Shown piece by piece: positions 2,395 through 45,756 of a stretch of 64,000 bases of DNA. This stretch comes from Candidatus Omnitrophota bacterium. Its GTDB lineage: Bacteria > Omnitrophota > Gorgyraeia > Gorgyraeales > Gorgyraeaceae. Below the pieces are notes generated by a model. It had not been told where the DNA came from, made no database searches, and saw nothing but the letters and a program-made list of their open reading frames with translations. Every line of letters begins with the position of its first letter. Positions within the stretch are counted from its first letter, which is position 1. Location: contig DNHS01000056.1 of the NCBI GenBank assembly GCA_003485765.1, positions 8,064 to 72,063 on the forward strand, given 5' to 3'. The position numbers and the translations under genes were made by a program.

Positions 2395-2423
<29 letters not shown>

Positions 2424-2778
2424 TGCTGACTGCGTAATTATTCGTATGAGACATGCTGACTATTATCTTGTTTAGTTTATTCTTGTTTGCAAATCTCCTG
2501 GCTTCCTCGTGTAATATCACTTCCGGCTTGCCTTTTGAATCATTCAGGACTTCTATATTTTTTAAGTTTACACCCACCCTTGTATCCCCGAATGCCTTTA
2601 AGACTGCTTCTTTACAGGCAAACCTCGCAGCCAAATTTTCATGCGGAAATTTTTTCTTGTTCGCATAAGAAAGTTCCCGCTTGGTAAAAACCCTGTTCAG
2701 GAATTTATCGCCCCAGATATCCAAAGCTTTTTTTACCCGCGATACCTCTATTATATCAATTCCGGTTCCTATAATCAT
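2395..2778 (-). CDS. acpS: Holo-[acyl-carrier-protein] synthase
   Basis: 127 aa. MIIGTGIDIIEVSRV... is the typical AcpS N-terminus with the GxD motif. Confidence 0.85.
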
Positions 2779-2802: not shown

Positions 2803-2837
2803 ATGTTACAAAACGAGTATGGCTTGTTTTGTAACAT
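2803..2837. repeat. 35-bp palindromic intergenic element, copy 1 (ATGTTACAAAAC-gagtatggctt-GTTTTGTAACAT)
   Basis: 12-bp perfect inverted arms with an 11-nt loop. The same element is at 9219-9252, 24231-24263 and 43632-43666. Confidence 0.8.
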
Positions 2838-3550
2838 TAGGAGCACAATGCCTTCATATCCTGAACTGCTTGGCACAATCCTGTAAACACAGCTCGAGAT
2901 ATTATCGAATGGCCGATATTTAGTTCGTTTATGCCTTTAATATCAGCTATTGGTTTAACATTCATATAATTAAGGCCGTGTCCTGCGTTTACAATAATGT
3001 CTCTGGACATTGCGTACTCAGCCGAATCTTTTATTTTCTTAAACTCTCTGGCCATAGACTTCTTGTCTTTCGCCAGGCTATACTCTCCTGTATGTATTTC
3101 TATAGTGCCTATACCTATATATATAGCAGAACGGATTTCGTTCTTGTCAGGCCCAATAAAAACACTTACGTCTATGCCTTTTTTATTGAATAATGCCGTT
3201 ATTTTAGCCAGCTTTTTTTCAAATTTTATAACGCTTAACCCGCCTTCTGTTGTAAGTTCCTGCCTTTTTTCAGGCACTAGAGTAACTTGATCAGGCCCAA
3301 GCTTCAAGGCAATATCCACTATCTCCGGATTTATTGACATCTCAAGATTAAACCTTGTATTTATTCTCTTTCTTAACTCAAAGACATCCCTGTCGTTTAT
3401 GTGCCGCCTGTCTTCCCTTAGATGCGCAACAATACTGTCGCAACCTGCCTTCTCGCATATCAAAGCAGCTTCAATAGTGTCAGGTTCGATCCCTCCTCTG
3501 GCCTGCCTTAAAGTTGCAACGTGATCTATGTTGACTCCTAACTTAGGCAT
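2837..3550 (-). CDS. pdxJ: Pyridoxine 5'-phosphate synthase
   Basis: 237 aa. MPKLGVNIDHVATLRQARGG...EDRRHI... are PdxJ signature residues. Confidence 0.9.
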   Translation of the reverse strand: MPKLGVNIDHVATLRQARGGIEPDTIEAALICEKAGCDSIVAHLREDRRHINDRDVFELRKRINTRFNLEMSINPEIVDIALKLGPDQVTLVPEKRQELTTEGGLSVIKFEKKLAKITALFNKKGIDVSVFIGPDKNEIRSAIYIGIGTIEIHTGEYSLAKDKKSMAREFKKIKDSAEYAMSRDIIVNAGHGLNYMNVKPIADIKGINELNIGHSIISRAVFTGLCQAVQDMKALCS

Positions 3551-4519: not shown

Positions 4520-5343
4520 TATTTTTCTCCGTTACGGCTAATTGCATCGGCAACCATAACAACCTGCTTCATTTCTTTAACGTCATGCACCCTTACTATA
4601 TCTGCGCCGTTTTTGATTGCTATAGCTACTGACGCTGCTGTGCCGAATTGCCTTTTATCAGATTTAGCTCCCGTGAGTTTTCCTATAAAAGACTTTCTCG
4701 AAGTTCCGATGAGTACAGGCAGCTTAAATTCTTTAAATTCAGAGAGCCTGTTTAAAATCTGAAGATTATGCTCTAGTGTTTTTCCAAATCCAATTCCAGG
4801 ATCTATTATTATATTTTCTTTTTTTATGCCCCTTATTATTGATTTTTCAATAATAATTTTTAGCTTCTCTTTAATTTCCTGAACCACATTCCCATAATTC
4901 GGGCTATGTTGCATTGTTTGTGGAGTGCCTTTTATATGCATCAGCACAACCTTTGCATTAAATCCCTTAGCCACATCTATAATTTCAGGATCCGACTCCA
5001 AACCTGTTATATCGTTTACTATTGATGCCCCGTTTTCTAACGCAAGCCTGGCAACCTCTGACTTGGCTGTATCTATTGAAATAGGAACGCTTATTCTTTT
5101 TGACAATCTTTTGATAATAGGTATTGTCCTTTTTATCTCTTCTTCAGTTGTAACAGGCTCTGCGCCTGGCCTGGTAGATTCGCCTCCTATGTCAATTATA
5201 TCAGCCCCGTCTTCAACCATCCCTTCTGCTATACTGACTGCTCTATCTACATCTTGATATATGCCGTCTCCGCTAAAAGAATCAGGCGTGACATTCAGTA
5301 TCCCCATTATATAAGTACGGGAACCAAATTTAAAATCTGTCAT
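4519..5343 (-). CDS. folP: Dihydropteroate synthase
   Basis: 274 aa. GILNVTPDSFSGDG...DIIDIGGESTRPG... pterin-binding motifs. Confidence 0.9.
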   Translation of the reverse strand: MTDFKFGSRTYIMGILNVTPDSFSGDGIYQDVDRAVSIAEGMVEDGADIIDIGGESTRPGAEPVTTEEEIKRTIPIIKRLSKRISVPISIDTAKSEVARLALENGASIVNDITGLESDPEIIDVAKGFNAKVVLMHIKGTPQTMQHSPNYGNVVQEIKEKLKIIIEKSIIRGIKKENIIIDPGIGFGKTLEHNLQILNRLSEFKEFKLPVLIGTSRKSFIGKLTGAKSDKRQFGTAASVAIAIKNGADIVRVHDVKEMKQVVMVADAISRNGEK

Positions 5344-7181
5344 ACTTGCGCAGGAAAAACTATCTTTTTTACCTCTTCCGAATCCAATACCTCTTTTTCA
5401 AGCAATGTTTCAGCAAGGGCTTTTAATTTTTCAACATTAGCTGTTAATTCATCTTTTGCCCGCTTATAGCACTCTTCTATGATTTTGCGTATCTCTTTAT
5501 CTATTTCCACAGCTGTTGCTTCGCTGTAATTTCTTTCTTCCACAATATCGCGGCCAAGAAATATCTGATCTTCTCTCCTCCCAAAAGTAAGATTTCCAAG
5601 TTTCTCGCTCATGCCCCATCTCATTACCATATCCCTGGCAATATCAGTAGATTTTTCTAAATCGTCTTGAGCGCCCGTTGAAAGCTCCCCGAACACAAGA
5701 TCCTCGCTGGCCCTGCCGCCCAATATGCCAACTATCCTTCCTATCAGTTCTTTTTTAGTCACGATGTATCTATCTTCCAAAGGCAGCCTCATCGTGTAAC
5801 CAAGCGCAATGCCCCTTGGTATAATAGAAACTTTATGCAAAGGGTCAGCTCCTGGTATCAGAAGCGCTAAAAGCGCATGGCCTGATTCATGATACGAAAC
5901 TATTTTTTTCTCCTCTAGGTTTATAACTCTTGTCTTTTTTTCAGGCCCTGCAATAACTCTTTCAATAGACTCTCCTAATTCTTTCATCTCCACATTCTCT
6001 TTATTTCTCCTCGCAGCCAAAAGAGCAGCCTCGTTCACAAGATTAGCAAGGTCTGCCCCTGAAAAACCAGATGTCTGCCTTGCAATGTATTTAAGGTCAG
6101 CGTCTTTGTTGAGCTTAATGCCTTTTGTGTGAACTTTCAATATCGCTTCTCTGCCTATGATATCAGGCCTGGAGATAACTATTGTTCTGTCAAATCTCCC
6201 TGGCCTTAACAATGCCGGGTCCAGAACATCAGGCCTGTTGGTAGCTGCTATCAGTATAACGCCTTCCTGTGTATCGAATCCATCCATCTCTACAAGAAGC
6301 GCGTTCAAAGTCTGTTCCCGTTCGTCGTGGCCACCGCCTATTCCTGCGAACCTCTGCCTTCCTACTGCATCTATTTCATCAATAAAAATAATGCATCCTC
6401 TGCCGCTTATCTTTGCAGAGCGTTTGGCTTGCTCAAAAAGATCTCTTACTCTGGAGGCGCCTACGCCCACAAACATCTCTACGAAATCAGAACCGCTTAT
6501 GTTGAAAAATGGCACACCTGCTTCGCCGCTCACTGCCTTTGCTAGAAGGGTTTTTCCCGTGCCAGGGGGCCCCATCAATAAAACGCCTTTAGGAATCTTG
6601 CCGCCTAATTTCTGGAACCTCTTAGGATCTTTTAAAAATTCTATAATCTCCTTCAATTCTTCTTTTGCTTCGTCAACCCCGGCAACATTATCAAATGTTA
6701 TTTTTAATTTATCGCCTGCTATTTGTTTTGCGCGACTTTTCCCAAACGAAAGTATTTTGCCTCCTCCCTGCGCACCTCTATATACAAAAAACCACAGGAA
6801 TCCTATGAATAAAAGCATTGGCCCAAGTGAATAAAAAAGATTTGTCCACAACGTCTTTGGAGGTTTAACATCAAAATCAGGCACATTGTTACGTAATAAA
6901 TTTAAAAGCTCAGGATCTTCCTGGGGTATATGCACTGTAAAACGCGCTCCGCTGGAAAACGTGCCTTTGAGCTCATCCTCCATTTTTACAACAGACTTAA
7001 TGGCCACTGTTTGTTTATTGCCTTGTAATAGCCTGTAAAATTCACCGTAACTCAGCTCTTTTGGAAGCGAAGCTTGGGAGAAAGAATCCATCCTGAATAT
7101 ATATATAAGAAGCAAAAACAGCCCTACCCATAATAAAATATTCTTATTAACTTTATTCCCGCCTTTATTTTCCATTTTCAT
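5340..7181 (-). CDS. ftsH: ATP-dependent zinc metalloprotease FtsH
   Basis: 613 aa. N-terminal TM region, AAA Walker [14 protein letters not shown], second region of homology, HEAGH zinc motif (HESGHAL). Confidence 0.95.
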
Positions 7182-8250: not shown

Positions 8251-8327
8251 TGGTAGCGGCGAGTGGATTTGAACCACTGACACGCCGGGTATGAGCCGAC
8301 TGCTCTGCCAGGCTGAGCTACGCCGCC
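8251..8327 (-). tRNA. tRNA with CAU anticodon (elongator Met or Ile2/lysidine substrate), CCA encoded
   Basis: GGCGGCGTAGCTCAGCCTGGCAGAGCAGTCGGCTCATACCCGGC...GGTTCAAATCC...CGCCGCTACCA. Immediately upstream of and co-oriented with tilS. Confidence 0.8.
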
Positions 8328-8392: not shown

Positions 8393-9193
8393 TTACCTCA
8401 ACACTTCATTCAAGCTTCCAGTCCTATATCCTTCTAAATCCAGCGTAATATACTTAAACTCAAGCTGTTTTAAATGTTTTGTTATTTTATCACAAAATTT
8501 TTTATTCACAAACCTTTTTATATCCTCTTTTTCTACTTCAATTCTTGCAACATTGCCATGATAACGAACCCTTACTTGAGTTATGCCCTGCCTTTTTATA
8601 AAATCTTCCGCTGCCTCTATTTTTACTAACGTCTTTTTATTTATCTTTTCGCCATATGGGAATCTGGAAGCCAAGCATGCCATTGAAGGCAGCATAGCGG
8701 TCTCTAATTTTAATTTCGTAGAATATCTTCTTATATCATATTTTGAAAACCCTGCTTCCATAAGAGGGCTTCTTATCCCTAACTCCTTTTTTGCTATACT
8801 GCCGGGCCTATAATCCTTTGCATCGTCTGTATTTGATGCGTCCAGCACATAGTTAAAACCCTGCTTTCTTGCTATTTCATTTAGTTTGCAGAATAATTCT
8901 TTCTTGCAATAATAACATCTATTAATTGGATTCTTTGTAAAATTTTTATTTTTAAGCTCATCTGTAAAGATTATTTTGTGCCTTGCTCCTAGCTTTTTTG
9001 CAAATCTCTTTGCCTGTTTAAGCTCAGAGCTGGTATATGTCTCTGAAACAGCTGTTACAGCCAGGACATTCCCATCCTGCAAAATATCCTTTGCCATCTT
9101 AAGCAAAAAACTACTATCCACCCCTCCTGAAAACGCCACAACGACCCTGCCCATTCCCATCAAAATCTTCTTCAATCTCTCTAATTTACCCAA
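8393..9193 (-). CDS. PP-loop ATP pyrophosphatase, LarE/TIGR00268-type sulfur transferase family
   Basis: 266 aa. SGGVDSS PP-loop and a conserved Cys segment (MACLASRFPYG) typical of LarE-like proteins. Confidence 0.6.
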   Translation of the reverse strand: MGKLERLKKILMGMGRVVVAFSGGVDSSFLLKMAKDILQDGNVLAVTAVSETYTSSELKQAKRFAKKLGARHKIIFTDELKNKNFTKNPINRCYYCKKELFCKLNEIARKQGFNYVLDASNTDDAKDYRPGSIAKKELGIRSPLMEAGFSKYDIRRYSTKLKLETAMLPSMACLASRFPYGEKINKKTLVKIEAAEDFIKRQGITQVRVRYHGNVARIEVEKEDIKRFVNKKFCDKITKHLKQLEFKYITLDLEGYRTGSLNEVLR

Positions 9194-9218: not shown

Positions 9219-9252
9219 ATGTTACAAAACGAGTATGACTTGTTTTGTAACA
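9219..9252. repeat. 35-bp palindromic intergenic element, copy 2
   Basis: ATGTTACAAAACgagtatgacttGTTTTGTAACA, between larE-like and mnmA. Confidence 0.8.
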
Positions 9253-9268
9253 GGCACGAATTGTAAAG

Positions 9269-10426
9269 TTACGATAATATTTTGTCGATCCAGCCGCCGC
9301 CTGAGACATATTCTCCATCATAAAAAACAGCTGCTTGTCCTGGCGTTATTGCGCTTTGTGGCTCTTTAAAATCTACTTCTGCAATATTGCCGCCTAAATC
9401 CTTTACGTAAGCCCAAGCCTTTTTATGATTATATCTTATCTTCACCTCTAAATCTTTTTCTTTTTCAGTATCCTTTGCCAGCCAGTTGATTTTCTTCACC
9501 AGAAATCTTTTTTTCTTAACATCTTCCGCGGCTCCGACAACAATAATATTATGCTTAGGCCTTATTTCTGTAACATAAAGAGGTTCTTTGGCGGCTATGC
9601 CAAGCCCTCTGCGCTGGCCTATTGTAAAATTCCAGAAACCCATATGATTTCCAAGCGCCTTGCCAGATCTATCTATTATATTGCCTTTCTGAGGCTTTAT
9701 ATTTCTATACTTTTTTATAAAATCAGAATAATTATTATCAGGAACAAAACATATCTCCTGACTATCAGGCTTATCGTATATGTTAAGCTCTAATTCCTTT
9801 GCTTTACGCCTGATATCATCCTTTGTAAAATTTCCTATCGGAAATAGTATTTTTTTCAACTGGCTTTGTTTCAGGCAAAATAAAACATAAGATTGGTCTT
9901 TTGCTTTATCAACAGATTCTCTCAGCCCATAAGAACCATTTATACATTCGCCCGCCACAGAAACCAATGGCGGGCTCAGTATTCCGCCCAAGGAACCCCG
10001 GGCATTAGCCCGGGTGGGCTCCATTTCTATCCTGGCATAATGTCCTGTTGCAATAAAATTACAGCCTAGGCCAATTGCTTTTTTAAGCAGACTGCCGAAC
10101 TTTATTTTTTCGTTGCAAACAATACATGGATTAGGGGTTTTGCCTGCTAAATATTCTTTTACAAAATAGTCTATTACATTCTTTTGGAAGTCCGCTTCAA
10201 GATTTAAAACATAATGTTTTATGCCGAGGACTCTTGAAACCTTTCTTGCGTCTTCTATATCTTTTAATGAGCAGCACGCCTTTTCTTTTTCCTTGCCGCA
10301 TAACTCCTTCGGCCAAACCTTCATGGTGGCGCCTATGACTTCATATCCAGCTTCATTCAGAATAGCTGCTGCCACAGAGCTGTCCACCCCGCCACTCATC
10401 GCAACTAGTACTCGCTTATTCTTCAT
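9269..10426 (-). CDS. mnmA: tRNA-specific 2-thiouridylase
   Basis: 385 aa. VLVAMSGGVDSSVAA PP-loop, catalytic Cys residues, C-terminal beta-barrel region. Confidence 0.9.
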   Translation of the reverse strand: MKNKRVLVAMSGGVDSSVAAAILNEAGYEVIGATMKVWPKELCGKEKEKACCSLKDIEDARKVSRVLGIKHYVLNLEADFQKNVIDYFVKEYLAGKTPNPCIVCNEKIKFGSLLKKAIGLGCNFIATGHYARIEMEPTRANARGSLGGILSPPLVSVAGECINGSYGLRESVDKAKDQSYVLFCLKQSQLKKILFPIGNFTKDDIRRKAKELELNIYDKPDSQEICFVPDNNYSDFIKKYRNIKPQKGNIIDRSGKALGNHMGFWNFTIGQRRGLGIAAKEPLYVTEIRPKHNIIVVGAAEDVKKKRFLVKKINWLAKDTEKEKDLEVKIRYNHKKAWAYVKDLGGNIAEVDFKEPQSAITPGQAAVFYDGEYVSGGGWIDKILS

Positions 10427-22783: not shown

Positions 22784-23437
22784 CTATGCGGAAATGGAAG
22801 ATTCAGCGCGCCTGACTTCTTCTATAAAGCGCTCCATTAATTCGGCATTCTTATTGCCTGGGCTGGATTCAATACCTGAGGAGACATCTACGCCATAAGG
22901 CTTAACTTCTTTTATTATTTTATAAACATTATCAGGGTTTAAGCCGCCTGATATAATAATATTTTTTCCATATTCTTTTGCAATGACAACAAGTGAATGG
23001 TCAAAATCTTCACCTGTGCCGCCATATAACCCTCTTTTATAAGCATCAAGTAAAATCGCATCTGCAGGGCAATCTTCTATAGCTTCCAAACTTTCCCTAT
23101 CCTTGATCCTTATAGCTTTTATAAGTTTCACTCCTTTTAACTTTAAACTTTTAAACTTTAAACAATATTTCACATCTTCATCGCCATGCAGCTGGACAGC
23201 GTTCAAATTACACCTTTCAACGCATTCTTCAATAAATTCGAGATCCTCATTAACAAAAACTCCCACTGCGCTTATAAAAGGCGGGATATCTTTTACTATC
23301 CTCTCAGCCTTTTCCAATGCGACAAAACGAGAGCTATCTTTAAAAAATACAACCCCTATTGCGTCAGCGCCTGCTGCTATTGCGCTATCCCTGTCTTCAA
23401 CTGATATTATTCCGCAAAACTTAACCCTTACTCTCAT
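22784..23437 (-). CDS. trpF: N-(5'-phosphoribosyl)anthranilate isomerase
   Basis: 217 aa. VKFCGI...VQLHGDE...GGTG...SGGL PRAI motifs. Contains an in-frame tandem-heptamer segment at about 23141-23170. Confidence 0.85.
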   Translation of the reverse strand: MRVRVKFCGIISVEDRDSAIAAGADAIGVVFFKDSSRFVALEKAERIVKDIPPFISAVGVFVNEDLEFIEECVERCNLNAVQLHGDEDVKYCLKFKSLKLKGVKLIKAIRIKDRESLEAIEDCPADAILLDAYKRGLYGGTGEDFDHSLVVIAKEYGKNIIISGGLNPDNVYKIIKEVKPYGVDVSSGIESSPGNKNAELMERFIEEVRRAESSISA

Positions 23438-24243
23438 TGCATGATCTCCTTTATCTTCCCTGCAATATCATCTGCTCCCAAAAACGCTCCACCTATTAGA
23501 ACAGCATTCACTCCAGCCTTCCTGAGCTTTCCAATATCTTCATTGGTGGATATCCCGCTTTCACTAATTGTTATAATTTCTTTAGGGATTTTAGGAATAA
23601 GTCTGTAAGCGGTATCCATCGATATTATGAATGTCTCCAGATCCCTATTATTAACCCCTATTATATCTGCTCCGCTCAACAAGGCCTTTTCAAGATCAAA
23701 TTCATCGTGAATCTCAATAATGGCATCCATGTTAATCTTTTTCGCAAGATGCATAAAACTCTTTATCTGGTCCACTGATAAAATCCTAGCAATTAATAGT
23801 ATTGCGTCTGCTCCGAAATAACGGGACTCGTAAACCTGATATTCGTCTATTATAAAATCTTTTCTCAGGACAGGCATATCTACGGCGCGCTTTACTTCAT
23901 TTATATGCAGGATATTCCCGCTAAAAAACTTTTTATCTGTGAGGACTGATATAGCTTTAGCTCCTTCTGCCTTATATATATTTGCTATGGTGGTTATATC
24001 TAATTTTCTGAAAAAATTTCTTTTAAAAGACGGAGATTTCTTTTTTATCTCTGCAATAAGGTTCAGCTCTTCCCCGCTGGAGATAGCTTTTTTAAATGGC
24101 CGTATGCCTCTTAATAGGCGTTTTGAATCAACAAACTCTGTTATAGCCCTTTTGGATTTCAGCGCATCGACTTCTTTTCTTTTTAATATAATTATATCCT
24201 GCAAAAAATTTTTCATATTATGCGCTACTAGTTTACAAAACAA
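23434..24243 (-). CDS. trpC: Indole-3-glycerol phosphate synthase
   Basis: 269 aa with IGPS motifs (IAEIKKKSPS, VLRKDFIID, GVNNRDLETF). The real start is possibly the internal Met at 24216. Confidence 0.85.
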   Translation of the reverse strand: MFCKLVAHNMKNFLQDIIILKRKEVDALKSKRAITEFVDSKRLLRGIRPFKKAISSGEELNLIAEIKKKSPSFKRNFFRKLDITTIANIYKAEGAKAISVLTDKKFFSGNILHINEVKRAVDMPVLRKDFIIDEYQVYESRYFGADAILLIARILSVDQIKSFMHLAKKINMDAIIEIHDEFDLEKALLSGADIIGVNNRDLETFIISMDTAYRLIPKIPKEIITISESGISTNEDIGKLRKAGVNAVLIGGAFLGADDIAGKIKEIMQ

Positions 24244-24263
24244 GTCATACTCGTTTTGTAAAC
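24231..24263. repeat. 35-bp palindromic intergenic element, copy 3 (opposite loop orientation)
   Basis: GTTTACAAAACaagtcatactcGTTTTGTAAAC at the trpD stop / trpC start junction. Confidence 0.75.
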
Positions 24264-25270
24264 TAACGATTAGTAAATTCTACCAGTTTTTCTAATTTCT
24301 CTTTTGCCTTGCCTGATTCTATGGATAAACTGGCTATTTCAATGCCATCTTTAAAATCCTTTGCCATGCCTCCGGCAATTAACGCAGCAGAAGCGTTTAA
24401 TAATACCACATCCTGCCTCGGGCCTTTTTCTCCTTCAATGACCTTTTTTACTATAGCTGCGTTTTCTTCCACGGTTCCGCCTTTTATATCTAAAAGTTCT
24501 GCTTTCTTCATGCCGAAATCCTGAGGCTTTATATAATATCCTTTTACCTTTTTATTATTCAACTCGCTAACTTTGGTTTCACCTGTTATAGTTATTTCAT
24601 CCAGAGTGTCCATGCCATGCACTACAAATGCCCTTTTAACACCCAGATTATTAAGCACGTTTGCAAGCTTATCCGTAAGGCCTTCTTCATATACGCCTAA
24701 AACCTGGCCCATAGCATTTGCAGGATTTGTAAGAGGCCCGAGTATATTGAATATCGTTCTTATTCCTATCTCTCTCCTTGGTCCTATTGCAAATTTCATT
24801 GCATTATGAAAAAGCGGCGCATATAAAAAACCTATGCCTATCTTTTCTATACATTCCTTAACTTTTTCAGGCGATATATCAATATTTACCCCAAGCGCTT
24901 TTATAACATCTGCGCTTCCACAAACGCTAGAGACCCCGCGATTTCCGTGCTTAGCCACTTTTAACCCAGCCCCGCTTACCACGAAAGCAACTGTTGTCGA
25001 TATATTAAAGGTATCCACTCCGCTTCCTCCTGTCCCGCAGGTATCTATTGAATTGCTGCTTATGTCAATTTTTGTAGCTTTCTCGCGCATAACAATAGCA
25101 GCGCCTGTAATTTCCTCTACTGTTTCGCCTTTAATTCTAAGCGCTGTAATAAAACTTCCTATCTGCGCCTGAGTGGCAACTCCAGTCATTATCTCATTCA
25201 TGCAGGAAATCATCTCTTCCCGCGTCAGGTCAAATCCATCTACTGCTTTCCCAATAGCTTCTTTTATCAT
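24263..25270 (-). CDS. trpD: Anthranilate phosphoribosyltransferase
   Basis: 335 aa. [24 protein letters not shown] and NPANA motifs. Confidence 0.9.
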
Positions 25271-25281
25271 ACAAACCTCTC

Positions 25282-25845
25282 TTATAAATTAATAAAGTTC
25301 TTTAATAATTGCTTTCCTTCTTTAGTCAAGATTGATTCGGGATGAAACTGAACTCCCCATATTGGAAATTTTTTATGCGCAAGGCCCATTATTTCGTTAT
25401 CCTTTGTCCATGCCATAATCTGCAATGCATCCGGAAAAGATTTTTTCTCAACTATCAATGAATGATACCTCGTAGCTTCGAATGGATTAGATAAACCTTT
25501 AAAGATAGGATTGGCGTTATGGTATATCAAAGAAGTTTTGCCATGCATAAGTTTATCTGCGCGGATAACCTTCCCTCCAAAAACCTCTCCTATTGCCTGG
25601 TGACCGAGACAAACTCCTAACAATGGAATTCTAGCTCCAAACTCTTTTATAACCTTTTCTGAAATACCCGCCTCGCTTGGCCTTCCTGGGCCAGGAGAGA
25701 TTACGATATGATTCGGCTTTAATATTTTTATCTCTTCAATGTTTATCTTATCGTTTCTATATACAGTTAACTTTTCCCCAAGTTCAGACAAATACTGAAC
25801 CAGATTATAGGTAAATGAATCATAATTATCTATCATTAAAATCAT
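25282..25845 (-). CDS. trpG: Anthranilate synthase component II (glutamine amidotransferase)
   Basis: Class-I GATase triad (GVCLGHQ..., HPES). ATG at 25845 is preceded by a GAGGTG RBS; the ORF-track start at 25857 is a TTG. Confidence 0.85.
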
Positions 25846-25862: not shown

Positions 25863-25899
25863 AAGTTGACACTTCTGACATTGTCAGAAGTGTCAACTT
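25863..25899. repeat. Perfect 37-bp palindrome (18-bp arms, 1-nt spacer) at the trpE-trpG junction
   Basis: AAGTTGACACTTCTGACA t TGTCAGAAGTGTCAACTT. The right arm overlaps the last codons and stop of trpE. Ends 18 nt upstream of the trpG RBS. Confidence 0.8.
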
Positions 25900-27380
25900 G
25901 TCAATCCTCTCTCTGCGATTTCTATCGCCATGACTATTGCTTTTGCTTTATTCACTGTCTCCTGATATTCCCTGGACGGGATAGAATCAGCTACGATGCC
26001 TCCGCCTGCCTGTATAAAAGCGTCTCTTCCTTTAACAAGCATAGTCCTTATGGTTATGCAAGTGTCCATATTCCCAGAAAAACTAAAATATCCTACCGCT
26101 CCTGCGTAATAACTTCTTTTTGTATTCTCAAGTTCGTCTATTATCTCCATAGCCCTTACCTTGGGAGCGCCTGATACAGTGCCTGCTGGAAAACACGCCC
26201 TTAAGACATCAAATGCGTTCTTATTTTTATCAAGAATGCCCCTGCAATTACTCACAATATGCATGACGTGAGAATACTTCTCTATAAACATAAAATCTGT
26301 TACATGCACGCTGCCCGGTTTACAGACCCTTCCTATGTCATTCCTGCCAAGATCCACCAGCATTACATGTTCTGCTCTTTCCTTTACGTCAGCTAAAAGT
26401 TCCTTTTCCAGTTTTTTATCTTCGGCATCATTCCTGCCTCTCGGCCTTGTGCCTGCTATAGGCCTGGTCTCAACTATTCCGTTTTCGCACCTAACCAAAA
26501 GCTCCGGAGACGAGCCTACAATCTTTAGATCGTTAAAATTCAGATAATACATATAAGGCGATGGATTTAAAGATCTGAGCGAGCGGTAAACATCAAACGG
26601 CTCGCAGTCGAGCTTTGTGTGAAACCTCTGCGACGGCACAACCTGTATAATATCCCCGGCTTTTATATATTCTTTTGCCTTTCTAACTAAATTTTCAAAT
26701 TCTAGTTTTGTAAAATTAGCTTCTATCTTATGTTTTTTGTTTGTTGGTTTTATTTTTTGTTTCTTCTCAGGCATGCTCAATTTCTTCACAATCTCTTCTA
26801 TTTTTTTGACTGCCTTATCGTATATCTTTCCGCCTTTAACCTTTAACCTTTCACCTTTCACTAAATATGCATTTACCACTATCTTAACCTTGTGCGTTGA
26901 ATGATCAAATATCACTAGGCTGTCCGCCATCATAAATATAGAATCGGGGATCTGCAAATCATCAGGATTTTTATCAGGCAGGTTTTCAAAAAATCTTACC
27001 ATATCATATCCCATGTATCCTACCAGCCCTCCGGAAAATCTGGGAAGGCCTTTTGTCTCAGCCGCTTTAAAATCACTCATTATATTTTCAATTTCTTTTA
27101 ATGGCTCATCTGCAAGATATGTTTTAATTTTTCCACCCTTATTTATCTCAATTGAATTCGCCTTGCTCTTTAATATTATAGAAGGTTCTAGGCCTATAAA
27201 TGAAAACCTCGCTATCTTTTCCTGGCCTTCAACAGACTCCAATAAATATGAATACCCCTTGCCTATTTTCTGAAAGACAGAAACAGGGGTTAATGTATCT
27301 GCCAGAATTTCTTTATAGACAGGGATTACGTTTACCTTTTTAGCCAGCTTTATGAATTCTTGTTTGGATGGATAATACAT
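25893..27380 (-). CDS. trpE: Anthranilate synthase component I
   Basis: Chorismate-binding motifs ([28 protein letters not shown]). Start set at the Met of MYYPSKQEF (27380), which abuts the hisI stop. The track's longer start would overlap hisI by 50 nt. Confidence 0.85.
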
Positions 27381-27381
27381 A

Positions 27382-27717
27382 TTATACTTTTCTATAAAAA
27401 CAATTCCTGTTTCCCGTATGACACGCAACGCCATCTCCTAATTGCCTTACTTTTATAAGAAGGGTGTCCATGTCGCAATCATAATAAATCGCTTTCACAA
27501 CCTGGAAATTTCCAGAAGTCTCTCCTTTTACCCAGTATTTTTGCCTGGATCTGGACCAGAAACATGTCTTTTTAACTTTCAATGTCTTCTTGAGAGAATC
27601 TTTGTTCATATAAGCCATCATCAAAACTTCTCTAGTCTTATAATCTTGGATTATAGCCGGAATCAAACCTTCTTTATCATATTTTAAATCCTCTGCTTTG
27701 AACCTTTGAGTCTTCAT
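27382..27717 (-). CDS. hisI: Phosphoribosyl-AMP cyclohydrolase (monofunctional)
   Basis: 111 aa. GLIPAIIQD...[16 protein letters not shown]...CD.D HisI motifs. No HisE domain. Confidence 0.85.
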
Positions 27718-30618: not shown

Positions 30619-31839
30619 CTATTTGAATCGCACTTTGAATGATTCCAGGTGCTTATTTAAGCCCTCTATTTTGGTCATCTTTTCAATAGCGACCTTTTCT
30701 TTTTCAAGCGCTTTTTTAGAATACGAAATAGTATGAATACTCTTTAAGAATGACCTTGCGCCAAGCCCTGAAAAAAATCTCGCAGTCCCGCCTGTAGGCA
30801 ATATATGGCTCGGCCCTGCAACATAGTCGCCTATGCAGACCGGCGAATATGGCCCTGTAAATATCGCGCCTGCATTCTGTATTTTCTTCATTATCCTGTT
30901 AGGTCTTTTGATTAATATCTCAAGATGTTCCGGCGCTATTCTATTTATAACCTCTACTGCCTGGTCAATATTTCTTGTCAGGACTATATATCCTTTTATA
31001 TCTTCATTTTTCATTGTCTTTGCGAACTTCTTAGATGTTGTCACCAGCACTACCAAGCCCTTAACATGTTCTGCCTGAGCCATTAGGTCTTGCGCAACAT
31101 AAGATTTATCTGAAAAATGATTTGCAAGTATAACGATTTCGCTCGGACCTGCCAGCATATCTATATCTACAAAGCCAAACACTTGTCTCTTTGCTTCGGT
31201 AACATATTCATTTCCCGGGCCTACTATCTTGTCCACCCTTGGTATAGTCTTTGTGCCAAACGCTAAGGCTGCTATTGCCTGAGCGCCCCCTACTTTATAA
31301 ACCTCGTCTACTTTTAAAAGATTAGCAACTGCCAGTATATGAGGATCCACATTGCCATATTTATTAGGAGGTGTAGTGAGAATTATCTTTTTAACCCCTG
31401 CCATCTTTGCAGGCACTACGCTCATGTAAACGCTTGACACAAGAGGCACTGTGCCAGCCGGGACATATATGCCGACCCTTTCAATAGGCCTGAATATTTC
31501 GCCGAGCTCTGCGCCGTCATCATATTTTATCTTCCAGGATTTTGGAAGTTCTTTTTTATAATATCTCTGTATATTCTCAATGATATGCTTAAGGCTTGTG
31601 ATAAAAGCTGTATCTATATTCTGAAAAGAACTATTTATCTCATTTACGCTTACTTTTAAATCTTTGGAGGTAAACTTTACTTTATCAAAACGCTTTGCGT
31701 ATTTTAAAACAGCTTTGTCTCCTTCGTTCCTGACATCATCGATGATTCTCCTGACCTTTTCTTCAATGTGCCTTTTATTCGTATAATAACGTTCGAAAAG
31801 TTTCTGCATTTCTTTGGATGATAATTTTAAAATTTTCAT
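30619..31839 (-). CDS. hisD: Histidinol dehydrogenase
   Basis: 406 aa. HisD family N-terminus, GPGN..V..AK motif, QAEH catalytic region. Confidence 0.85.
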
Positions 31840-34421
31840 AGATACCCCTTTATAATCTCCTCTGCCTTTTTTAATATATCCTGAATCTTTGGGCCTGAAC
31901 GGCTGCCTGCTTGAGCAAAATCCTGCCTGCCTCCGCCTTTTATCCCAAAATCAGCTCCTATATCATTTAAAATACCAACTGCGTCAAGTTTTCCTGCCTT
32001 AAGTAATTTACCTATCCCAACTATCAAAGCAATCTTTCCGTCTTTCTCGCTTACAAGCATAAATACCCCATTCGCGAGCCTATCCTTTATTGAATCAGCA
32101 TTTTTTCTCAAAAAAGAAGAATCTGCATTCTTAATCTCATTCATAATTACATCGATGCCGTTTATTTTCTTTATAGACCCCAAAATATCAACTACATTAT
32201 CCTGGACATTTTTATTGATGAAAACTTCCAGGGTTTTCTCCATCTGCTTTAATTTATCTGTAAGCTTTTCTATTTCCTTTGCTATATCCTCTGGCCTCAC
32301 ATTCAATTCTTTCGCAACCTCTTTTATCAGGCCCTCTTCCTGTTTTATTTTTTCATAAGCTGGTTTGCTTGTAATTGCCTCGATTCTTCTCACTCCGCTC
32401 GCAATAGAAGATTCTGAAACAATCTTAAAGATGTCTATCTCTCCTGTCCTTGTTACATGAGTCCCGCCGCAGAGCTCTCTAGAGTAATCGCCCACAGATA
32501 CCATCTTGACCACATCTCCGTATTTTTCTCCAAAAAGAGCAATCACATCTCTTTTACTTGCCTCTTCCAGGCTCAATTCATCTATCCTGACAGCGCTATC
32601 CTTTCTTATGCTTTCATTTACAATATCTTCGATCATAAAAAGCTCTTCATCTGTAACTCGCTTGAAATGCGTAAAATCAAAACGCAGCCTTTCCGGAGCC
32701 ACCATAGACCCTGCCTGCTTCACGTGCAAACCCAGGACCTTTCTTAAAGCATTATGCAAAAGATGCGTGGCAGTGTGATTTTTTCTTATGTCTAGCCTGC
32801 GCTCGATATCAACTTTTGCTGTAACCCGGTCCCCTGTTTTTAGAATGTCTTCTTTCATTTCAATCTCATGCTGAGTCCTGCCTGCCACATCAATGGCGTT
32901 TATAACACTGGCCATTATCTTCCCATCTTTTAAAAGCTCGCCCCTATCTCCTGCCTGTCCGCCTTTTTCGCCGTAAAAATTCGTCTCTTTTAAAAAAATG
33001 CTTCCTTTTTCTTTCTTTTTTATTTCGTTTTTTAAATTTCCATCTGAAACTATCTGAAGCACATGGGTCATTATCTCTTCCTTGTCTTCTATAAAAGGAG
33101 AAATATCCGGCAACTTTATATTAGTATTTCCTTCAATGTTAAATATGCTACCTGCGATTTTACTGCCCTGTTTTGATGCGGAGCGCTGATTTTCCATAAG
33201 GGCTTCAAAACCCTTTATATCCACTTTTATATTTTCACCTTCCGCAATTTCCTGAGTTAATTCCCACGGAAACCCATAGGTGTCATATAGCCTGAACACA
33301 TGCTCTCCAGATAAAATACCTAAATTTTTGGATCCTAGTAACATTACTTTTAATCTCTCAGTCCCTTCATCTATGGTATTTTTAAATCTTTTCTCCTCTT
33401 CCATCACTATCTGGCTTATATTCTCCCGATGTTCTACGAGTTCAGGGTAAGGCTTTTTCATAACATGGCTAACTACAGGGGCTATTCTGTATAAAAAAGG
33501 CTTGTCAAGGCCCATTCCTCGCCCATACCAGAATGCCCTTCTTATCAGTTTTCTTATTACATAACCTCTTTCCTCATTTGAAGGCAAAACCCCATCTGAT
33601 ATTGCAAACACAACAGCCCTTATGTGATCTGCTATTGCATTTACCTTCTGTCCACCTGCCATGTGAGCCATCTGGCTCACCTGGCAGGTGGACAGGTCTA
33701 ATATAGCTTTTATAATAGGCTGAAACGAATCTATCTCAAAATTTGTCTTTTTTCCCTGCAGCACCCTGGCAATCCTCTCCAGCCCCATTCCTGTATCTAT
33801 GTTTTTATTAGGCAACGGCTCCAGCGCGCCTTCACCTTTTCTGTCAAATTGCGTAAAAACAAGATTCCACACCTCTACCTCGTCAGGTCCGCCAAAAAAT
33901 ATCTCAGAACACGGCCCGCACGGGCCATTCGGGCCTGCGGCTGGCGCATTAGACGGCCAGAAATTATCCTTTTCTCCTAATTTTAAAATCTTTTCTTCCG
34001 GGATTTTTACTGTGTCCCTCCATATTTCATACGCCTCTTTATCATCTTTATAAACAGAAACCCATAGATCTTTTTCTTTAAGCCCAAGCTCTTTTGTAAG
34101 AAATTCCCATGCCCAAGAAATAGCGTCTTTTTTAAAATAATCCCCGAATGAAAAATTGCCGAGCATTTCAAAAAATGTGTGATGGCCGGCAGTTCTACCT
34201 ACATTTTCCAAATCTCCAGTCCTGAGGCATTTCTGGCATGTAGCAGCCCTTTTAGGGCCTTTAACCCTGCCCAAAAATTCTTCCTTAAACTGGTTCATGC
34301 CAGCGCCTGTAAATAGAAGCGACGGGTCATTGCGAGGGACAAGCGAATCGCTAGGATAAATCCTGTGGCCCCTTTCCTCAAGAAATCTCAAAAACCTTTC
34401 CCTTATCTCATCAACTTTCAT
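31836..34421 (-). CDS. alaS: Alanyl-tRNA synthetase
   Basis: 861 aa. Class II catalytic core, editing domain HxxxH...CGGTH, C-terminal DHHA1-like domain. Confidence 0.95.
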   Translation of the reverse strand: MKVDEIRERFLRFLEERGHRIYPSDSLVPRNDPSLLFTGAGMNQFKEEFLGRVKGPKRAATCQKCLRTGDLENVGRTAGHHTFFEMLGNFSFGDYFKKDAISWAWEFLTKELGLKEKDLWVSVYKDDKEAYEIWRDTVKIPEEKILKLGEKDNFWPSNAPAAGPNGPCGPCSEIFFGGPDEVEVWNLVFTQFDRKGEGALEPLPNKNIDTGMGLERIARVLQGKKTNFEIDSFQPIIKAILDLSTCQVSQMAHMAGGQKVNAIADHIRAVVFAISDGVLPSNEERGYVIRKLIRRAFWYGRGMGLDKPFLYRIAPVVSHVMKKPYPELVEHRENISQIVMEEEKRFKNTIDEGTERLKVMLLGSKNLGILSGEHVFRLYDTYGFPWELTQEIAEGENIKVDIKGFEALMENQRSASKQGSKIAGSIFNIEGNTNIKLPDISPFIEDKEEIMTHVLQIVSDGNLKNEIKKKEKGSIFLKETNFYGEKGGQAGDRGELLKDGKIMASVINAIDVAGRTQHEIEMKEDILKTGDRVTAKVDIERRLDIRKNHTATHLLHNALRKVLGLHVKQAGSMVAPERLRFDFTHFKRVTDEELFMIEDIVNESIRKDSAVRIDELSLEEASKRDVIALFGEKYGDVVKMVSVGDYSRELCGGTHVTRTGEIDIFKIVSESSIASGVRRIEAITSKPAYEKIKQEEGLIKEVAKELNVRPEDIAKEIEKLTDKLKQMEKTLEVFINKNVQDNVVDILGSIKKINGIDVIMNEIKNADSSFLRKNADSIKDRLANGVFMLVSEKDGKIALIVGIGKLLKAGKLDAVGILNDIGADFGIKGGGRQDFAQAGSRSGPKIQDILKKAEEIIKGYL

Positions 34422-42870: not shown

Positions 42871-43650
42871 CTATGGTTTTAAAATTAAAACAACCGCTAT
42901 TCCCAGCAGAATACAATATATCCCAAACCAATGAAACTTATTTCTATAAAGCACTTTTAATAATACTTTTAATGATACAACCCCTACAATACAAGATATA
43001 AAAAGTCCGATAAAATAATTTATATTTACGCCTGTAAGATTAAACCCTGTTTCCTTGATTTTAAATAAGAACGCCCCTAGTATTGCCGGGATAGATAATA
43101 AAAACGAGAATTTTGCAGCAGTCTGTCCATCAAGCCCTAAAAATAACCCTGTGGAAATCGTGGCGCCGCTCCTGGATATGCCAGGTAAAGCTGCTATACC
43201 CTGAGCTAGTCCAATCAAACCTGCTTTAAAAACTGTCATACCCTCTGTTCCAAGTCTTATGAAATTAGCAGCAATAAGCCATATGCCTGTCAGTATAAGC
43301 ATAATACCGACTGTTCTTACATTACTAAATGCAGCCTCTATGTTTTTAATAAAGAACAAAACAAAAACAAATGTTACTAAGCTGCTTGCTAAAATTAATG
43401 CGCCTATTCTTTTTTTAGTAGTTACACTTTCTATTATATCTCTGCCGAATACTATAAATACGGCTACTAAGGTTCCAAGATGCAAAAATAAATCGAAAAG
43501 AATTTCAGGCTCATTAAGGCCCATTAATTTATGCAAAATAACCAAATGGCCTGAGCTTGAAATAGGTAAAAACTCTGCCACGCCCTGCACGATCCCTGAA
43601 ATTATAGCCTGAAATAACCCCATAACCCCGTATGTTACAAAACAAGTCAT
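42871..43650 (-). CDS. uppP: Undecaprenyl-diphosphatase
   Basis: BacA family, EFLPISSSGH motif. The real start is probably the internal Met at 43623, which would leave the palindromic repeat fully intergenic. Confidence 0.85.
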   Translation of the reverse strand: MTCFVTYGVMGLFQAIISGIVQGVAEFLPISSSGHLVILHKLMGLNEPEILFDLFLHLGTLVAVFIVFGRDIIESVTTKKRIGALILASSLVTFVFVLFFIKNIEAAFSNVRTVGIMLILTGIWLIAANFIRLGTEGMTVFKAGLIGLAQGIAALPGISRSGATISTGLFLGLDGQTAAKFSFLLSIPAILGAFLFKIKETGFNLTGVNINYFIGLFISCIVGVVSLKVLLKVLYRNKFHWFGIYCILLGIAVVLILKP

Positions 43651-43666
43651 ACTCGTTTTGTAACAT
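43632..43666. repeat. 35-bp palindromic intergenic element, copy 4
   Basis: ATGTTACAAAACaagtcatactcGTTTTGTAACAT between pnp and uppP. Confidence 0.8.
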
Positions 43667-43677
43667 TAGCGTTTAGT

Positions 43678-45756
43678 TTATTGGCTTGCCTGTTTTATGC
43701 TCAGGTTCAATCTGCCCATCTCGTCTATCTTAATGAGCTTAACTCTGACCTTGTCCCCAATCTTAACAACATCTTCCGCGTTTTTAACAAACTTATCCGA
43801 AAGCTCAGAAACATGCACAAGGCCTTCCTTGCCAGGCAGTATCTCGCAGAACGCTCCAAAGTTCATAATCTTTTTTACAGTAGCTTCATAAATCGTGCCG
43901 ACTTCGGGCTCGCTTGTAATACCCTTTATTATATCAATCGCTTTTCTGGAAGCCTCTTCATTGTCAGAAGCAACAGAAACTTTTCCTTCATCATCCACTT
44001 CTATTGTAGCGCCTGTATCCTGAATTATCCTTTTTATAATTTTGCCTCCCGGGCCTATCAAAGCTCCTATTTTTTCCTTGTCTATCATCAATGTGGTTAT
44101 CCTTGGCGCATATTCTGATAATTCTTTTCTAGGCGCATTTATTGTTTCTATTATTTTGTTTAAGATAAATGCCCTTGCAGGATTCGCCTGCTTAACTATC
44201 TTTCTGATTAAATTCATATCTATTCCATCTATCTTAAGGTCCATCTGAAGCGCGGTTACGCCTGAATCAGTACCTGCTACCTTGAGATCCATATCGCCGT
44301 AATGGTCTTCCAATCCCGCAATATCAGTTAATATAGCTACTTCATTCTCTTCCTTTATCAGGCCCATAGCTATGCCTGAAACAGGCTTTGTAATAGGGAC
44401 GCCTGCGTCCATTAAGGAAAGAGTGCTAGCGCAAACAGTTGCCATGCTGCTAGAACCGTTTGACTCAAGTATCTCTGACACAACTCTTACAGTATAAGGA
44501 AACTCTTCATTCGAAGGCATTACTGCCTTGAGCGCCCTTTCTGCTAATGCGCCGTGCCCAATCTCGCGCCTGCCAGGCCCTCTCATCGGCTTTGTCTCTC
44601 CAACGCTAAAAGGCGGAAAATTATAATGCAGCATGAAACTTTTAAGTTTCTCGCCCTCAAGCGTATCCATCCTCTGCTCATCCTGGCTGGTGCCAAGTGT
44701 GGTGATTGATAAACTCTGGGTCTGGCCTCTTGTAAAAAGGCCTGAACCGTGAGTCCTTGGCAAAAGGCCTACTTCGCAGTTTATAGGCCTTATATCTTCA
44801 TATTTTCTAGTATCTATTCTTATTTTTTTCTCCAGAATAAACTTTCTAACCTCGGTTTTTTCTACTTCATACAACGCGTTTTTTATATCAAATTCGCTCA
44901 AGCCTTCATCTTCCTGGGTTAGTTTCTCGATAATCTGCCTGGCTAAAATATTAAAAGCATCTTCTCTCTGTTCTTTTGCAGGCAGAGCATTTATTTTTTT
45001 AAGCTCATCTATAGAAATCTTCCTTACTTTTTCATGCAGCCCGCTAGACACAAGCTTCAATTCAGGTTTAGTCTTTTCCTTGCCGCATTTTTTCTTAAGT
45101 TCTTCTTGTAATTCTATGCTTACTTTTATATACTCCTGGCTTAACTCTATTGCCTCAAGCATTTTTTCTTCTGAAATCTGATTTGCCCCTGCTTCCAGCA
45201 TTATGATCTTGTCTTTGAGCCCAGCTGAAACTAGATTCAATGAACTTTCCTCCAGCTCTTTAAAAGTAGGATTAATTACAAACTCTCCGCCTACTAATCC
45301 AATCCTTACCGCTCCTATAGGCCCCGTAAAAGGTATATCTGAAATAGCCAATGCGCAGGAAGCGCCTATAATTGCAGGTATATCAGAATCATTCTGGCCG
45401 TCGCTTGAAAGCACTATTGCAACAACCTGAACATCATTTACAAAGCCTTTTGGAAAGAGCGGCCTTATCGGCCTGTCTATAAGCCTTGATGTTAAAATCT
45501 CTTTTTCAGTAGGCCTTCCTTCGCGCTTAAAAAATCCTCCAGGGATCCTGCCTGCTGCGTATGTTTTTTCCTGGTATTCTACAGTAAGCGGGAAAAAATC
45601 AATGCCTTCCCTGAGTTCATTTGAACAAACAGCTGTAACCAGGACCATGGTTCCTCCATACTGCACGCGCACTGCCCCATTGGCCTGTTTTGCCATGCTG
45701 CCTGTTTCTATGATAATTGTTTCTTTTCCTATTTTTCTTTCGACTTTATGAATCAT
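43678..45756 (-). CDS. pnp: Polyribonucleotide nucleotidyltransferase (PNPase)
   Basis: 692 aa. Two RNase PH domains, KH domain, S1 domain. Confidence 0.95.
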   Translation of the reverse strand: MIHKVERKIGKETIIIETGSMAKQANGAVRVQYGGTMVLVTAVCSNELREGIDFFPLTVEYQEKTYAAGRIPGGFFKREGRPTEKEILTSRLIDRPIRPLFPKGFVNDVQVVAIVLSSDGQNDSDIPAIIGASCALAISDIPFTGPIGAVRIGLVGGEFVINPTFKELEESSLNLVSAGLKDKIIMLEAGANQISEEKMLEAIELSQEYIKVSIELQEELKKKCGKEKTKPELKLVSSGLHEKVRKISIDELKKINALPAKEQREDAFNILARQIIEKLTQEDEGLSEFDIKNALYEVEKTEVRKFILEKKIRIDTRKYEDIRPINCEVGLLPRTHGSGLFTRGQTQSLSITTLGTSQDEQRMDTLEGEKLKSFMLHYNFPPFSVGETKPMRGPGRREIGHGALAERALKAVMPSNEEFPYTVRVVSEILESNGSSSMATVCASTLSLMDAGVPITKPVSGIAMGLIKEENEVAILTDIAGLEDHYGDMDLKVAGTDSGVTALQMDLKIDGIDMNLIRKIVKQANPARAFILNKIIETINAPRKELSEYAPRITTLMIDKEKIGALIGPGGKIIKRIIQDTGATIEVDDEGKVSVASDNEEASRKAIDIIKGITSEPEVGTIYEATVKKIMNFGAFCEILPGKEGLVHVSELSDKFVKNAEDVVKIGDKVRVKLIKIDEMGRLNLSIKQASQ

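Follow-up and report, generated by a model that had tools for sequence, protein, structure and literature searches.

AT-rich hairpin repeats in operon gaps of Omnitrophota resemble REP elements and flank a RAYT-like gene in related genomes

The systems formed by repetitive extragenic palindromic (REP) sequences, or by their doublets (REPINs), together with REP-associated tyrosine transposases (RAYTs) are known almost exclusively from work on Gammaproteobacteria and Neisseria. The described REP superfamilies are defined by an unpaired GTAG or CGTC tag at one end (PMC3733652). RAYTs are single-copy and vertically inherited, and only those of Groups 2 and 3 have been tied to repeat populations (bioRxiv 10.1101/2021.07.10.451892). 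The present analysis concerns a 64-kb stretch of DNA from a Candidatus Omnitrophota bacterium (contig DNHS01000056.1), hereafter called the window, in which short hairpins occupy four gaps between genes. These hairpins are very probably REP-type elements that are recognised, copied and kept uniform within each genome by a fixed, single-copy HUH/Y1 RAYT-like enzyme with a C-terminal helix-turn-helix (HTH) domain. They are a new form, in sequence and architecture, of the known REP–RAYT kind, in a phylum in which such systems are undescribed; literature searches for Omnitrophota palindromes, for the arm sequence and for RAYTs in these phyla returned no description of the element. As AT-rich, tag-less hairpins from an uncultivated phylum, they widen the range of these systems.

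The REP–RAYT layout, a transposase-family gene flanked by the same dispersed repeat, is present in relatives of the window's genome. The exact 27-nt core and loop of the window, TACAAAAC-GAGTATGACTT-GTTTTGTA, flanks a RAYT-like gene at locus L156 (NCBI contig JBGGHJ010040632.1; protein P0148) and at loci L157–L159 (three ENA contigs; protein P0162). Two repeats lie upstream of this gene and one overlaps its stop codon, and their outer stems read TAGTT/AACTA, as in the third window copy, or TAATT/AATTA. Both proteins are 77–78% identical to a RAYT fragment encoded at L059, where a copy of the repeat lies upstream of the homologue. In the metagenome-assembled genome (MAG) JBDRIY01 (L007), the gene for a 294-aa protein (4982–5866) is bracketed by two elements, one on either side, and the homologue at L012 is accompanied by a downstream copy and a degenerate upstream copy. 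Other homologues each have a hairpin variant of their own: the inverted pair TTAACTTTACATTTT...AAAATGTAAAGTTAA stands beside a distant homologue in an Elusimicrobia MAG (L145), the variant TAAGTTGACAAAAT-GAGTATTACTT-GTTTTGTCAACTTA flanks the gene at L150, and further variants occur beside the genes at L143, L147, L152 and L154. Co-evolution of the enzyme with its hairpin would be expected to give such a distribution of variants.

At L150, L152, L154 and L156–L159, the gene belongs to a conserved neighbourhood consisting of PilZ, homoserine dehydrogenase, a threonine synthase-like PALP protein (thrC), the RAYT, an XRE-type HTH protein, Tricorn_N and a giant protein of about 2,000–2,500 aa. It lies in other neighbourhoods at L007 and L143–L148. 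The synteny of the former group agrees with the published single-copy, vertical inheritance of RAYTs (bioRxiv 10.1101/2021.07.10.451892). Numerous other contigs with the gene measure no more than about 1 kb, as would be expected of flanking repeats that break metagenome assemblies around it.

The protein from L007 matches the Pfam family Y1_Tnp (PF01797) with an E-value of 8.7e-13 and has an additional C-terminal HTH. It scores 83.1 bits on the NCBIfam model for REP-associated tyrosine transposases (NF047646), the cutoff of which is 80, and only 17.9 bits on the NCBIfam IS200 model. Its sole match in the PDB is 4ER8, the TnpA_REP protein of E. coli, with which the HUH and YI..NP tyrosine motifs align. 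The HUH motif (NH.H) and YI..NP are invariant across six aligned family members, and the first tyrosine of the latter motif is presumably the counterpart of Tyr115, the catalytic residue of TnpA_REP. The family is large, with 371 proteins at E-values of 1e-10 or below to the L007 protein and 1,145 at 1e-40 or below to P0110. Its named members come mostly from Omnitrophota and, in a few cases, from Elusimicrobia, WOR-3 and "Deltaproteobacteria" MAGs. Used as a query against proteins, the 100-aa fragment of L059 gave four short matches only.

Exactly four copies of a near-perfect hairpin with the core TACAAAAC-N11-GTTTTGTA are found in the window:

Copy 1, 2803–2837 (element 2802–2839): hairpin ATGTTACAAAAC GAGTATGGCTT GTTTTGTAACAT, with the loop GAGTATGGCTT on the plus strand; between pdxJ (2837–3550, minus strand) and acpS (2395–2778, minus strand); the pdxJ stop codon TAA (2837–2839, TTA on the plus strand) is its terminal tag.

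Copy 2, 9219–9253: hairpin with a right arm ending in G and a degenerate outer stem (CATGT/ACAGG); between mnmA (9269–10426, minus strand) and a PP-loop ATPase/larE-like gene (8393–9193, minus strand).

Copy 3, 24230–24264: hairpin with the variant arms AGTTTACAAAAC/GTTTTGTAAACT and pairing that reaches 24229–24265; between trpD (24263–25270, minus strand), the stop codon of which (TAG) lies in its right arm, and trpC (23434–24216, minus strand); its outer-stem variant TAGTT is identical to that of the repeats around the RAYT gene at L156.

Copy 4, 43632–43666 (element 43630–43668): hairpin between pnp (43678–45756, minus strand) and uppP/bacA (42871–43623, minus strand).

The preliminary description of the window, made from its sequence, had recognised this family in the same four gaps, and all four copies were recovered where chance predicts none. 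The 12-mer arm with at most one mismatch occurs seven times in the window against 0.42 expected (reached in 0 of 100 shuffles), the arm-N11-arm pattern has three matches against 0.00 expected, and the 27-nt consensus with three mismatches allowed retrieves precisely the four copies and nothing more. Solo half-sites at 1317, 21368, 26705, 57806 and 57975 look like chance occurrences within genes or a tRNA and were set aside. The coordinates first given for copies 1 and 4 stand; those of copies 2 and 3 had to be extended slightly, to the values listed above. Arms of 12 bp had been proposed, which needs qualification for copy 2, with 11 of 12 positions complementary, and for copy 3 with its variant arms. 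The proposed 11-nt loop did not survive, as GAGT and ACTT pair inside it and leave a true loop of 3 nt, ATG or CAT. The flanking genes are indeed co-directional and the gaps short, but these measure about 46–75 nt rather than 20–60 bp. Two copies face each way relative to transcription, and no U-run follows the hairpin at any of the four copies in the mRNA sense; both points had been correctly noted, as had the conclusion that these are not classic terminators. The stems of the window copies are AT-rich, and a U-run is lacking in either orientation.

The identity of the neighbouring genes was confirmed by Pfam (PdxJ/ACPS, MnmA/PP-loop ATPase, TrpD/TrpC and PNPase/BacA (UppP)). The minus strand carries nearly all genes of the window, including every gene flanking the four copies. 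In copies 1 and 3, the stop codon of the upstream gene falls within the foot of the hairpin; in copies 2 and 4, it is 11–16 nt away from the foot. The next start codon follows about 8–25 nt after the hairpin. Folding of 61-nt contexts as RNA in the mRNA sense gave −19.7 to −23.4 kcal/mol (z −4.1 to −7.6), and all six folds, two of the opposite strand included, span −16.1 to −23.4 kcal/mol. An Rfam scan of the whole window at gathering thresholds found five tRNAs only and no match at the hairpins. The ATG in the loop of copy 4 (43648–43650) is called as the start of uppP/bacA in the ENA annotation (259 aa); the NCBI call begins 27 nt further downstream (250 aa; L025 12107 versus L026 12134). 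Loop ATGs of this kind mislead gene callers. The PNPase of the window is identical to the protein on MHEZ01000007.1 of assembly GCA_001803975.1, a Candidatus Omnitrophota MAG from a groundwater metagenome.

Across genomes, the family has a consensus of about 41 nt, nnnnTAAnTT-TACAAAAC-[11]-GTTTTGTA-AnnTTAnnnn, which begins with TAA and ends with TTA. The elements are AT-rich, 35–41 nt long, and have stems of 16–17 bp. The invariance of the mid-stem is partly by construction, as it equals the search pattern. Repeat variants of the TACAAAAC, GACAAAAT, TACATTTT and GACAC types can be distinguished. The apical stem is genome-specific yet self-complementary, as in GAGT-ATG-ACTT, GAGTA-T-TGCTT, AGTTG-T-CAACT, CGTCG-T-CGACG and AGGC-CTC-GCCT, and copies within one genome share its sequence. 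The basal stem also varies with compensation (TAAGTT/AACTTA, TAACTT/AAGTTA, TAATGT/ACATTA and TAATT/AATTA). Over 94 distinct elements, 94.1% of the cells are paired against 80.3% after shuffling, and 235 cells are changed on both sides against 74.5 (0 of 500 shuffles reach the observed value). When the register is slid by one to three columns, pairing falls to 36–47%. At L040 (846–900), the right arm is duplicated with slight divergence (GTTTTGTAAACTC followed by ATTTTGTAAATTAGCG), as if copies were nested or had slipped.

In many Omnitrophota genomes, the motif occurs as dispersed copies, most of them intergenic. Neither of the outcomes that the preliminary description had named as refuting, a lack of intergenic enrichment genome-wide or a restriction to the window, was therefore observed. 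A scan of one genome per species with the pattern GTTACAAAAC-N11-GTTTTGTAAC returned 24 loci, of which 19 are in six other Omnitrophota MAGs (one labelled Planctomycetia) and five in Firmicutes. The five Firmicutes matches are followed by T-runs and have unpaired loops; they were rejected as ordinary terminators. A scan of metagenomes with a slightly shorter pattern gave at least 114 loci, from which several matches, such as the L055 group, were discounted because they satisfy the pattern through a different fold. In Ga0302250, at least 31 copies are spread along three contigs (833, 562 and 190 kb; 1.585 Mb).

The placement of the elements is regular. Among 67 non-redundant elements of the RAG...CTY type, 46 lie between co-directional, 3 between convergent and 4 between divergent genes; most are intergenic and a few overlap called open reading frames (ORFs). 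At least one long-ORF end is abutted by 51 of 68 elements. Of the 56 abutting ORF ends, 21 take as their stop the TAA that terminates the element 3 nt ahead of the core, and 3 others lie 2 nt ahead of it. Past the core, the start codon of the next gene usually follows after about 15–40 nt, with a Shine-Dalgarno-like stretch directly after the element. Orientation relative to transcription is unbiased, with 23 against 15 for the two asymmetric forms. An in-frame TAA occurs in two of the three frames of the element, and the third is open throughout. At L013 (5980–6019; also at L073 and L112), an in-frame copy lies within a 743-aa ORF, where it encodes ...SMLQNEHDLFCNI..., and it is conserved across these three related assemblies; this intragenic copy is a REP insertion tolerated in the sole stop-free reading frame.

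Some positions are shared between species. The junction of copy 2 (mnmA/PP-loop ATPase) corresponds to L035 of Ga0302250, which carries its own variant there and the flanking proteins of which are 74% and 79% identical. Likewise, the junction at L028 matches that at L113, with flanks 84–89% identical. Orthologues of the other three window junctions were not among the loci fetched. A junction between tsaE and an AIR-synthase-family gene is occupied by a single element at L084 and L122 and, in L007 (4473–6873), by the RAYT-like gene with an element on either side; flank identity across L007, L084 and L122 is only 37–54%. This arrangement suggests that the RAYT-like gene may have been gained or lost by recombination between the repeats. 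As each species has its own variant at the shared junctions, positions can outlast the sequence variant. One of three processes would account for this: homogenisation in place, by gene conversion or enzyme-mediated replacement; insertion of the repeat time and again at the same tolerated sites; or selection that favours the element at these junctions.

A working scheme can be drawn by analogy with TnpA_REP of E. coli and the TnpA proteins of the IS200/IS605 family. The HUH/Y1 enzyme would act on the hairpin in single-stranded DNA; it might bind the conserved mid-stem (GT)TACAAAAC/GTTTTGTA(AC) and cleave the single strand near the foot tagged by TAA/TTA. The repeats would be mobile, and in gene-dense genomes hardly any copies would survive outside the narrow space that separates a stop codon from the ribosome-binding site of the following gene. 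The copies are almost certainly transcribed because they lie inside operons such as trpE-G-D-C-F. Once transcribed, a hairpin of about −20 kcal/mol could act as a barrier to 3' exonucleases, as an RNase III processing site or as a weak attenuator, as REPs and Correia elements do, and may in this way modulate the relative expression of the flanking cistrons.

Several observations weigh against a REP–RAYT origin of the hairpins. The consensus contains neither a GTAG nor a CGTC tag and thus falls outside those two REP superfamilies (PMC3733652). The elements are singlets that do not form REPIN doublets, in which a pair of inverted REPs no more than about 130 bp apart makes up the replicating unit; they cluster only at L023, where two copies are 128 nt apart, and beside RAYT genes. 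The copies flanking the gene at L156–L159 are in direct rather than inverted orientation. With an E-value of 0.0055, the match to 4ER8 is weak, and most homologues reach only 44–63 bits on NF047646, below its 80-bit cutoff (L012, 47.9; P0148, 57.0; P0162, 44.4; P0151, P0179, P0042 and P0158, 56–63.5). The family is called RAYT-like for this reason, as most members other than the L007 protein remain under that cutoff. A search for the RAYT gene, suggested in the preliminary description, was successful in related genomes, including L156–L159 with the window's exact core, but tblastn found no homologue within the 64-kb window. The set used for covariation had been filtered (at least 3 of 4 inner and 4 of 7 outer pairs), each element had been oriented to its better-pairing strand, and the core was fixed by the search pattern. 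Positions kept at flank identities of 37–54% are no less compatible with a cis-element under selection than with a mobile element. Finally, no pair of empty and filled orthologous sites occurs among the fetched loci, all of which were chosen for carrying the repeat; the absence of empty sites is uninformative because of this selection. On balance, the dispersed motif and the RAYT-like gene flanked by it in relatives favour a REP-like element or RAYT substrate, one of the options listed when the hairpins were noticed.

The strongest competing explanation, although an improbable one, is that the hairpins serve operons chiefly as cis-acting RNA elements under selection (stabilisers, RNase III-type sites or devices for translational coupling), with a RAYT link that is secondary or homogenising. 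It would account well for the regular placement, with hairpins that start at most about 22 nt from the upstream stop and end immediately ahead of the Shine-Dalgarno sequence and start codon of the following gene, for the use of the element's TAA by 21 of 56 abutting ORF ends, and for orthologous junctions that are occupied at flank identities of 37–54% or 74–89%. Stable RNA folds and stem pairing maintained by compensatory changes point the same way. However, orientation is random, and 23 of 49 mRNA-sense strands have A/C mismatches where the opposite strand has G·U; random orientation and such mismatches in about half of the copies argue for a sequence moulded at the level of DNA and not by an RNA-specific requirement. 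A purely structural role in RNA would not need the inner-stem sequence to be shared within a genome, and it sits uneasily with copies between convergent or divergent genes or in frame within an ORF, and with a transposase-family gene flanked by the repeat. An RNA function of another sort, that of a factor-independent terminator or attenuator lacking a U-tract, is very unlikely. Strong hairpins directly past stop codons are in keeping with it, as is the count of canonical terminator-like sites, which are not in excess in the first 20 kb of the window (17 against 16.1 in shuffled sequence). Such a terminator would have no need of a conserved stem, yet the core is invariant across species; moreover, the hairpins lie within tight operons (trpE-G-D-C-F, pdxJ-acpS) with the next start about 9–34 nt past the end of the element, and they lack the U-run, in contrast to the Firmicutes pattern matches with their T-runs and unpaired loops.

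Two further explanations place the function of the hairpin in DNA. The element might be a minimal miniature inverted-repeat transposable element (MITE), formed by a pair of terminal inverted repeats from a DDE transposon (such as an IS630/Tc1-like one with a TA target) that directly adjoin each other, and mobilised by a complete insertion sequence at another place in the genome; we give this no better a chance than the terminator. The element does consist essentially of two inverted 20-nt halves, and its ends, TA(A)...(T)TA, are compatible with a TA target duplication. Correia/nemis-type MITEs provide a precedent for hairpins co-transcribed within operons. The idea was dropped, however, because no full-length element with single arms at its ends turned up when one was sought: no single arms 0.5–3 kb apart were seen around a DDE gene, and only the Y1/HUH gene is repeatedly bounded. 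The solo half-sites of the window, inside coding sequence, look like chance, and an A does not regularly follow the right TTA, contrary to what regeneration of a TAA target would give. Least probable of all is a duplex DNA site, an operator or chromosome-organisation site with half-sites GTTACAAAAC spaced by 11 bp and bound by a dimeric protein. Invariant, palindromic half-sites would make orientation irrelevant, and the RAYT-like protein itself has an HTH domain, but the spacer and outer flanks co-vary for intrastrand pairing that a duplex does not need. In addition, the sites occupy gaps between co-directional genes instead of promoter regions, and tens of copies are spread evenly over the chromosome. 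Integron attC sites, CRISPR repeats and parS were rejected as well, as the repeats are single and dispersed, their neighbours are housekeeping genes, and the consensus sequences of these sites do not match.

A second hairpin stands in the same trp operon as copy 3:

25863–25899: perfect hairpin with 18-nt arms, AAGTTGACACTTCTGACA-T-TGTCAGAAGTGTCAACTT, between trpE (25893–27434), the stop codon of which (TGA) lies within the right arm, and trpG (25282–25845).

Similar copies occur at L096 (211–243) and L140 (3984–4016). Stems of the form GTTGACA...TGTCAAC flank the RAYT-like gene at L150, and similar repeats lie upstream of the gene at L152. The hairpin at 25863–25899 thus probably represents a second, related REP-like family in the same genome. 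Other features of the window are apart from these repeats. A 48-bp near-perfect palindrome at 33648–33695 (23-nt arms, 96% complementary, 2 nt apart) lies inside the 861-aa alanyl-tRNA synthetase ORF (31836–34421, minus strand). Between about 47000 and 52000, two PqqD-family genes, a radical SAM/SPASM enzyme, and Transglut_core3 and NTP_transf_5 proteins stand among glycosyltransferase genes, in what looks like a cluster for the maturation of ribosomally synthesised and post-translationally modified peptides (RiPPs). The tRNA genes found by Rfam comprise four clustered at 956–1540 and a fifth at 8254–8327, all on the minus strand.

Three aspects of the repeats are surprising: the donation of stop codons, the conservation of junctions together with homogenisation per genome, and the size of the HTH-bearing RAYT-like family. 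A more far-reaching proposal, which we regard as possible although doubtful, is that an old partnership of repeat and enzyme exists in Omnitrophota and neighbouring candidate phyla, outside the RAYT groups linked to repeats to date. In this partnership, a domesticated, HTH-bearing enzyme would maintain single TAA-tagged hairpins as operon punctuation. The hairpins would provide stop codons, would stay at shared gene junctions over deep divergence and would be rewritten in place to the current master sequence of each genome, which amounts to concerted evolution, through enzyme-mediated replacement or gene conversion, rather than transposition to new sites. With stop-codon donation, conserved junctions and homogenisation per genome all apparent from sequence, the repeats are well suited to the question of whether REPs live as parasites or symbionts or have been co-opted by operons, and they could serve as lineage markers for Omnitrophota bins.

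Among known systems, the Correia/nemis and ERIC-type MITEs resemble the Omnitrophota element in being hairpin repeats that end in TA and are transcribed as part of operons. They act as RNase III substrates and as determinants of mRNA stability. In contrast to the Y1-linked Omnitrophota element of 41 nt, they are 100–150 bp long, have distinct terminal inverted repeats and internal sequence, and are mobilised by DDE enzymes. With IS200/IS605 elements (IS608, ISDra2), the likeness would lie in an HUH/Y1 enzyme, a hairpin used as single-stranded DNA and the lack of an evident target duplication. The Omnitrophota element also contains TTAC, the target tetranucleotide of IS608. The Omnitrophota hairpins, however, are dispersed without the gene, which is apparently single-copy and, in several genomes, syntenic, unlike the multi-copy, mobile genes of IS200/IS605.

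The nearest described relatives may be the terminal inverted repeat (TIR)/TIRYT families of Di Nocera et al., 2013, to which the present repeats are likened by description only. In these families, RAYT-like genes are flanked by repeats unrelated to the GTAG REPs, some of which are self-complementary and make up dispersed families of moderate abundance, and TIRYT proteins can be distinguished from RAYTs by their length (PMC3733652). The Omnitrophota repeat lacks the GGGGWSAS motif, and the published TIRYT groups are not from Omnitrophota. In common with the REP/REPIN–RAYT systems of Enterobacteria, Pseudomonas, Stenotrophomonas and Neisseria, the repeats are short imperfect palindromes that are present in tens of copies, mostly extragenic, mainly downstream of ORFs and in both orientations (PMC3733652). 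They are likewise uniform within a genome and different between species, and the HUH/Y1 gene is repeat-flanked and syntenic (bioRxiv 10.1101/2021.07.10.451892); the best match of the Omnitrophota enzyme among solved structures is TnpA_REP of E. coli (4ER8). The differences lie in elements that are AT-rich instead of GC-rich, with a near-perfect stem, a 3-nt loop and no GTAG, and that occur as singlets rather than as REPINs or bacterial interspersed mosaic elements (BIMEs), with symmetric TAA/TTA ends often used as a stop. The protein differs too, with about 290 aa (294 in L007) and a C-terminal HTH against 165 aa for the 4ER8 chain, a difference in length of about 125 aa. Lastly, the phylum is Omnitrophota, whereas the published REPIN-associated RAYTs (Groups 2 and 3) come from Gammaproteobacteria and Neisseria.

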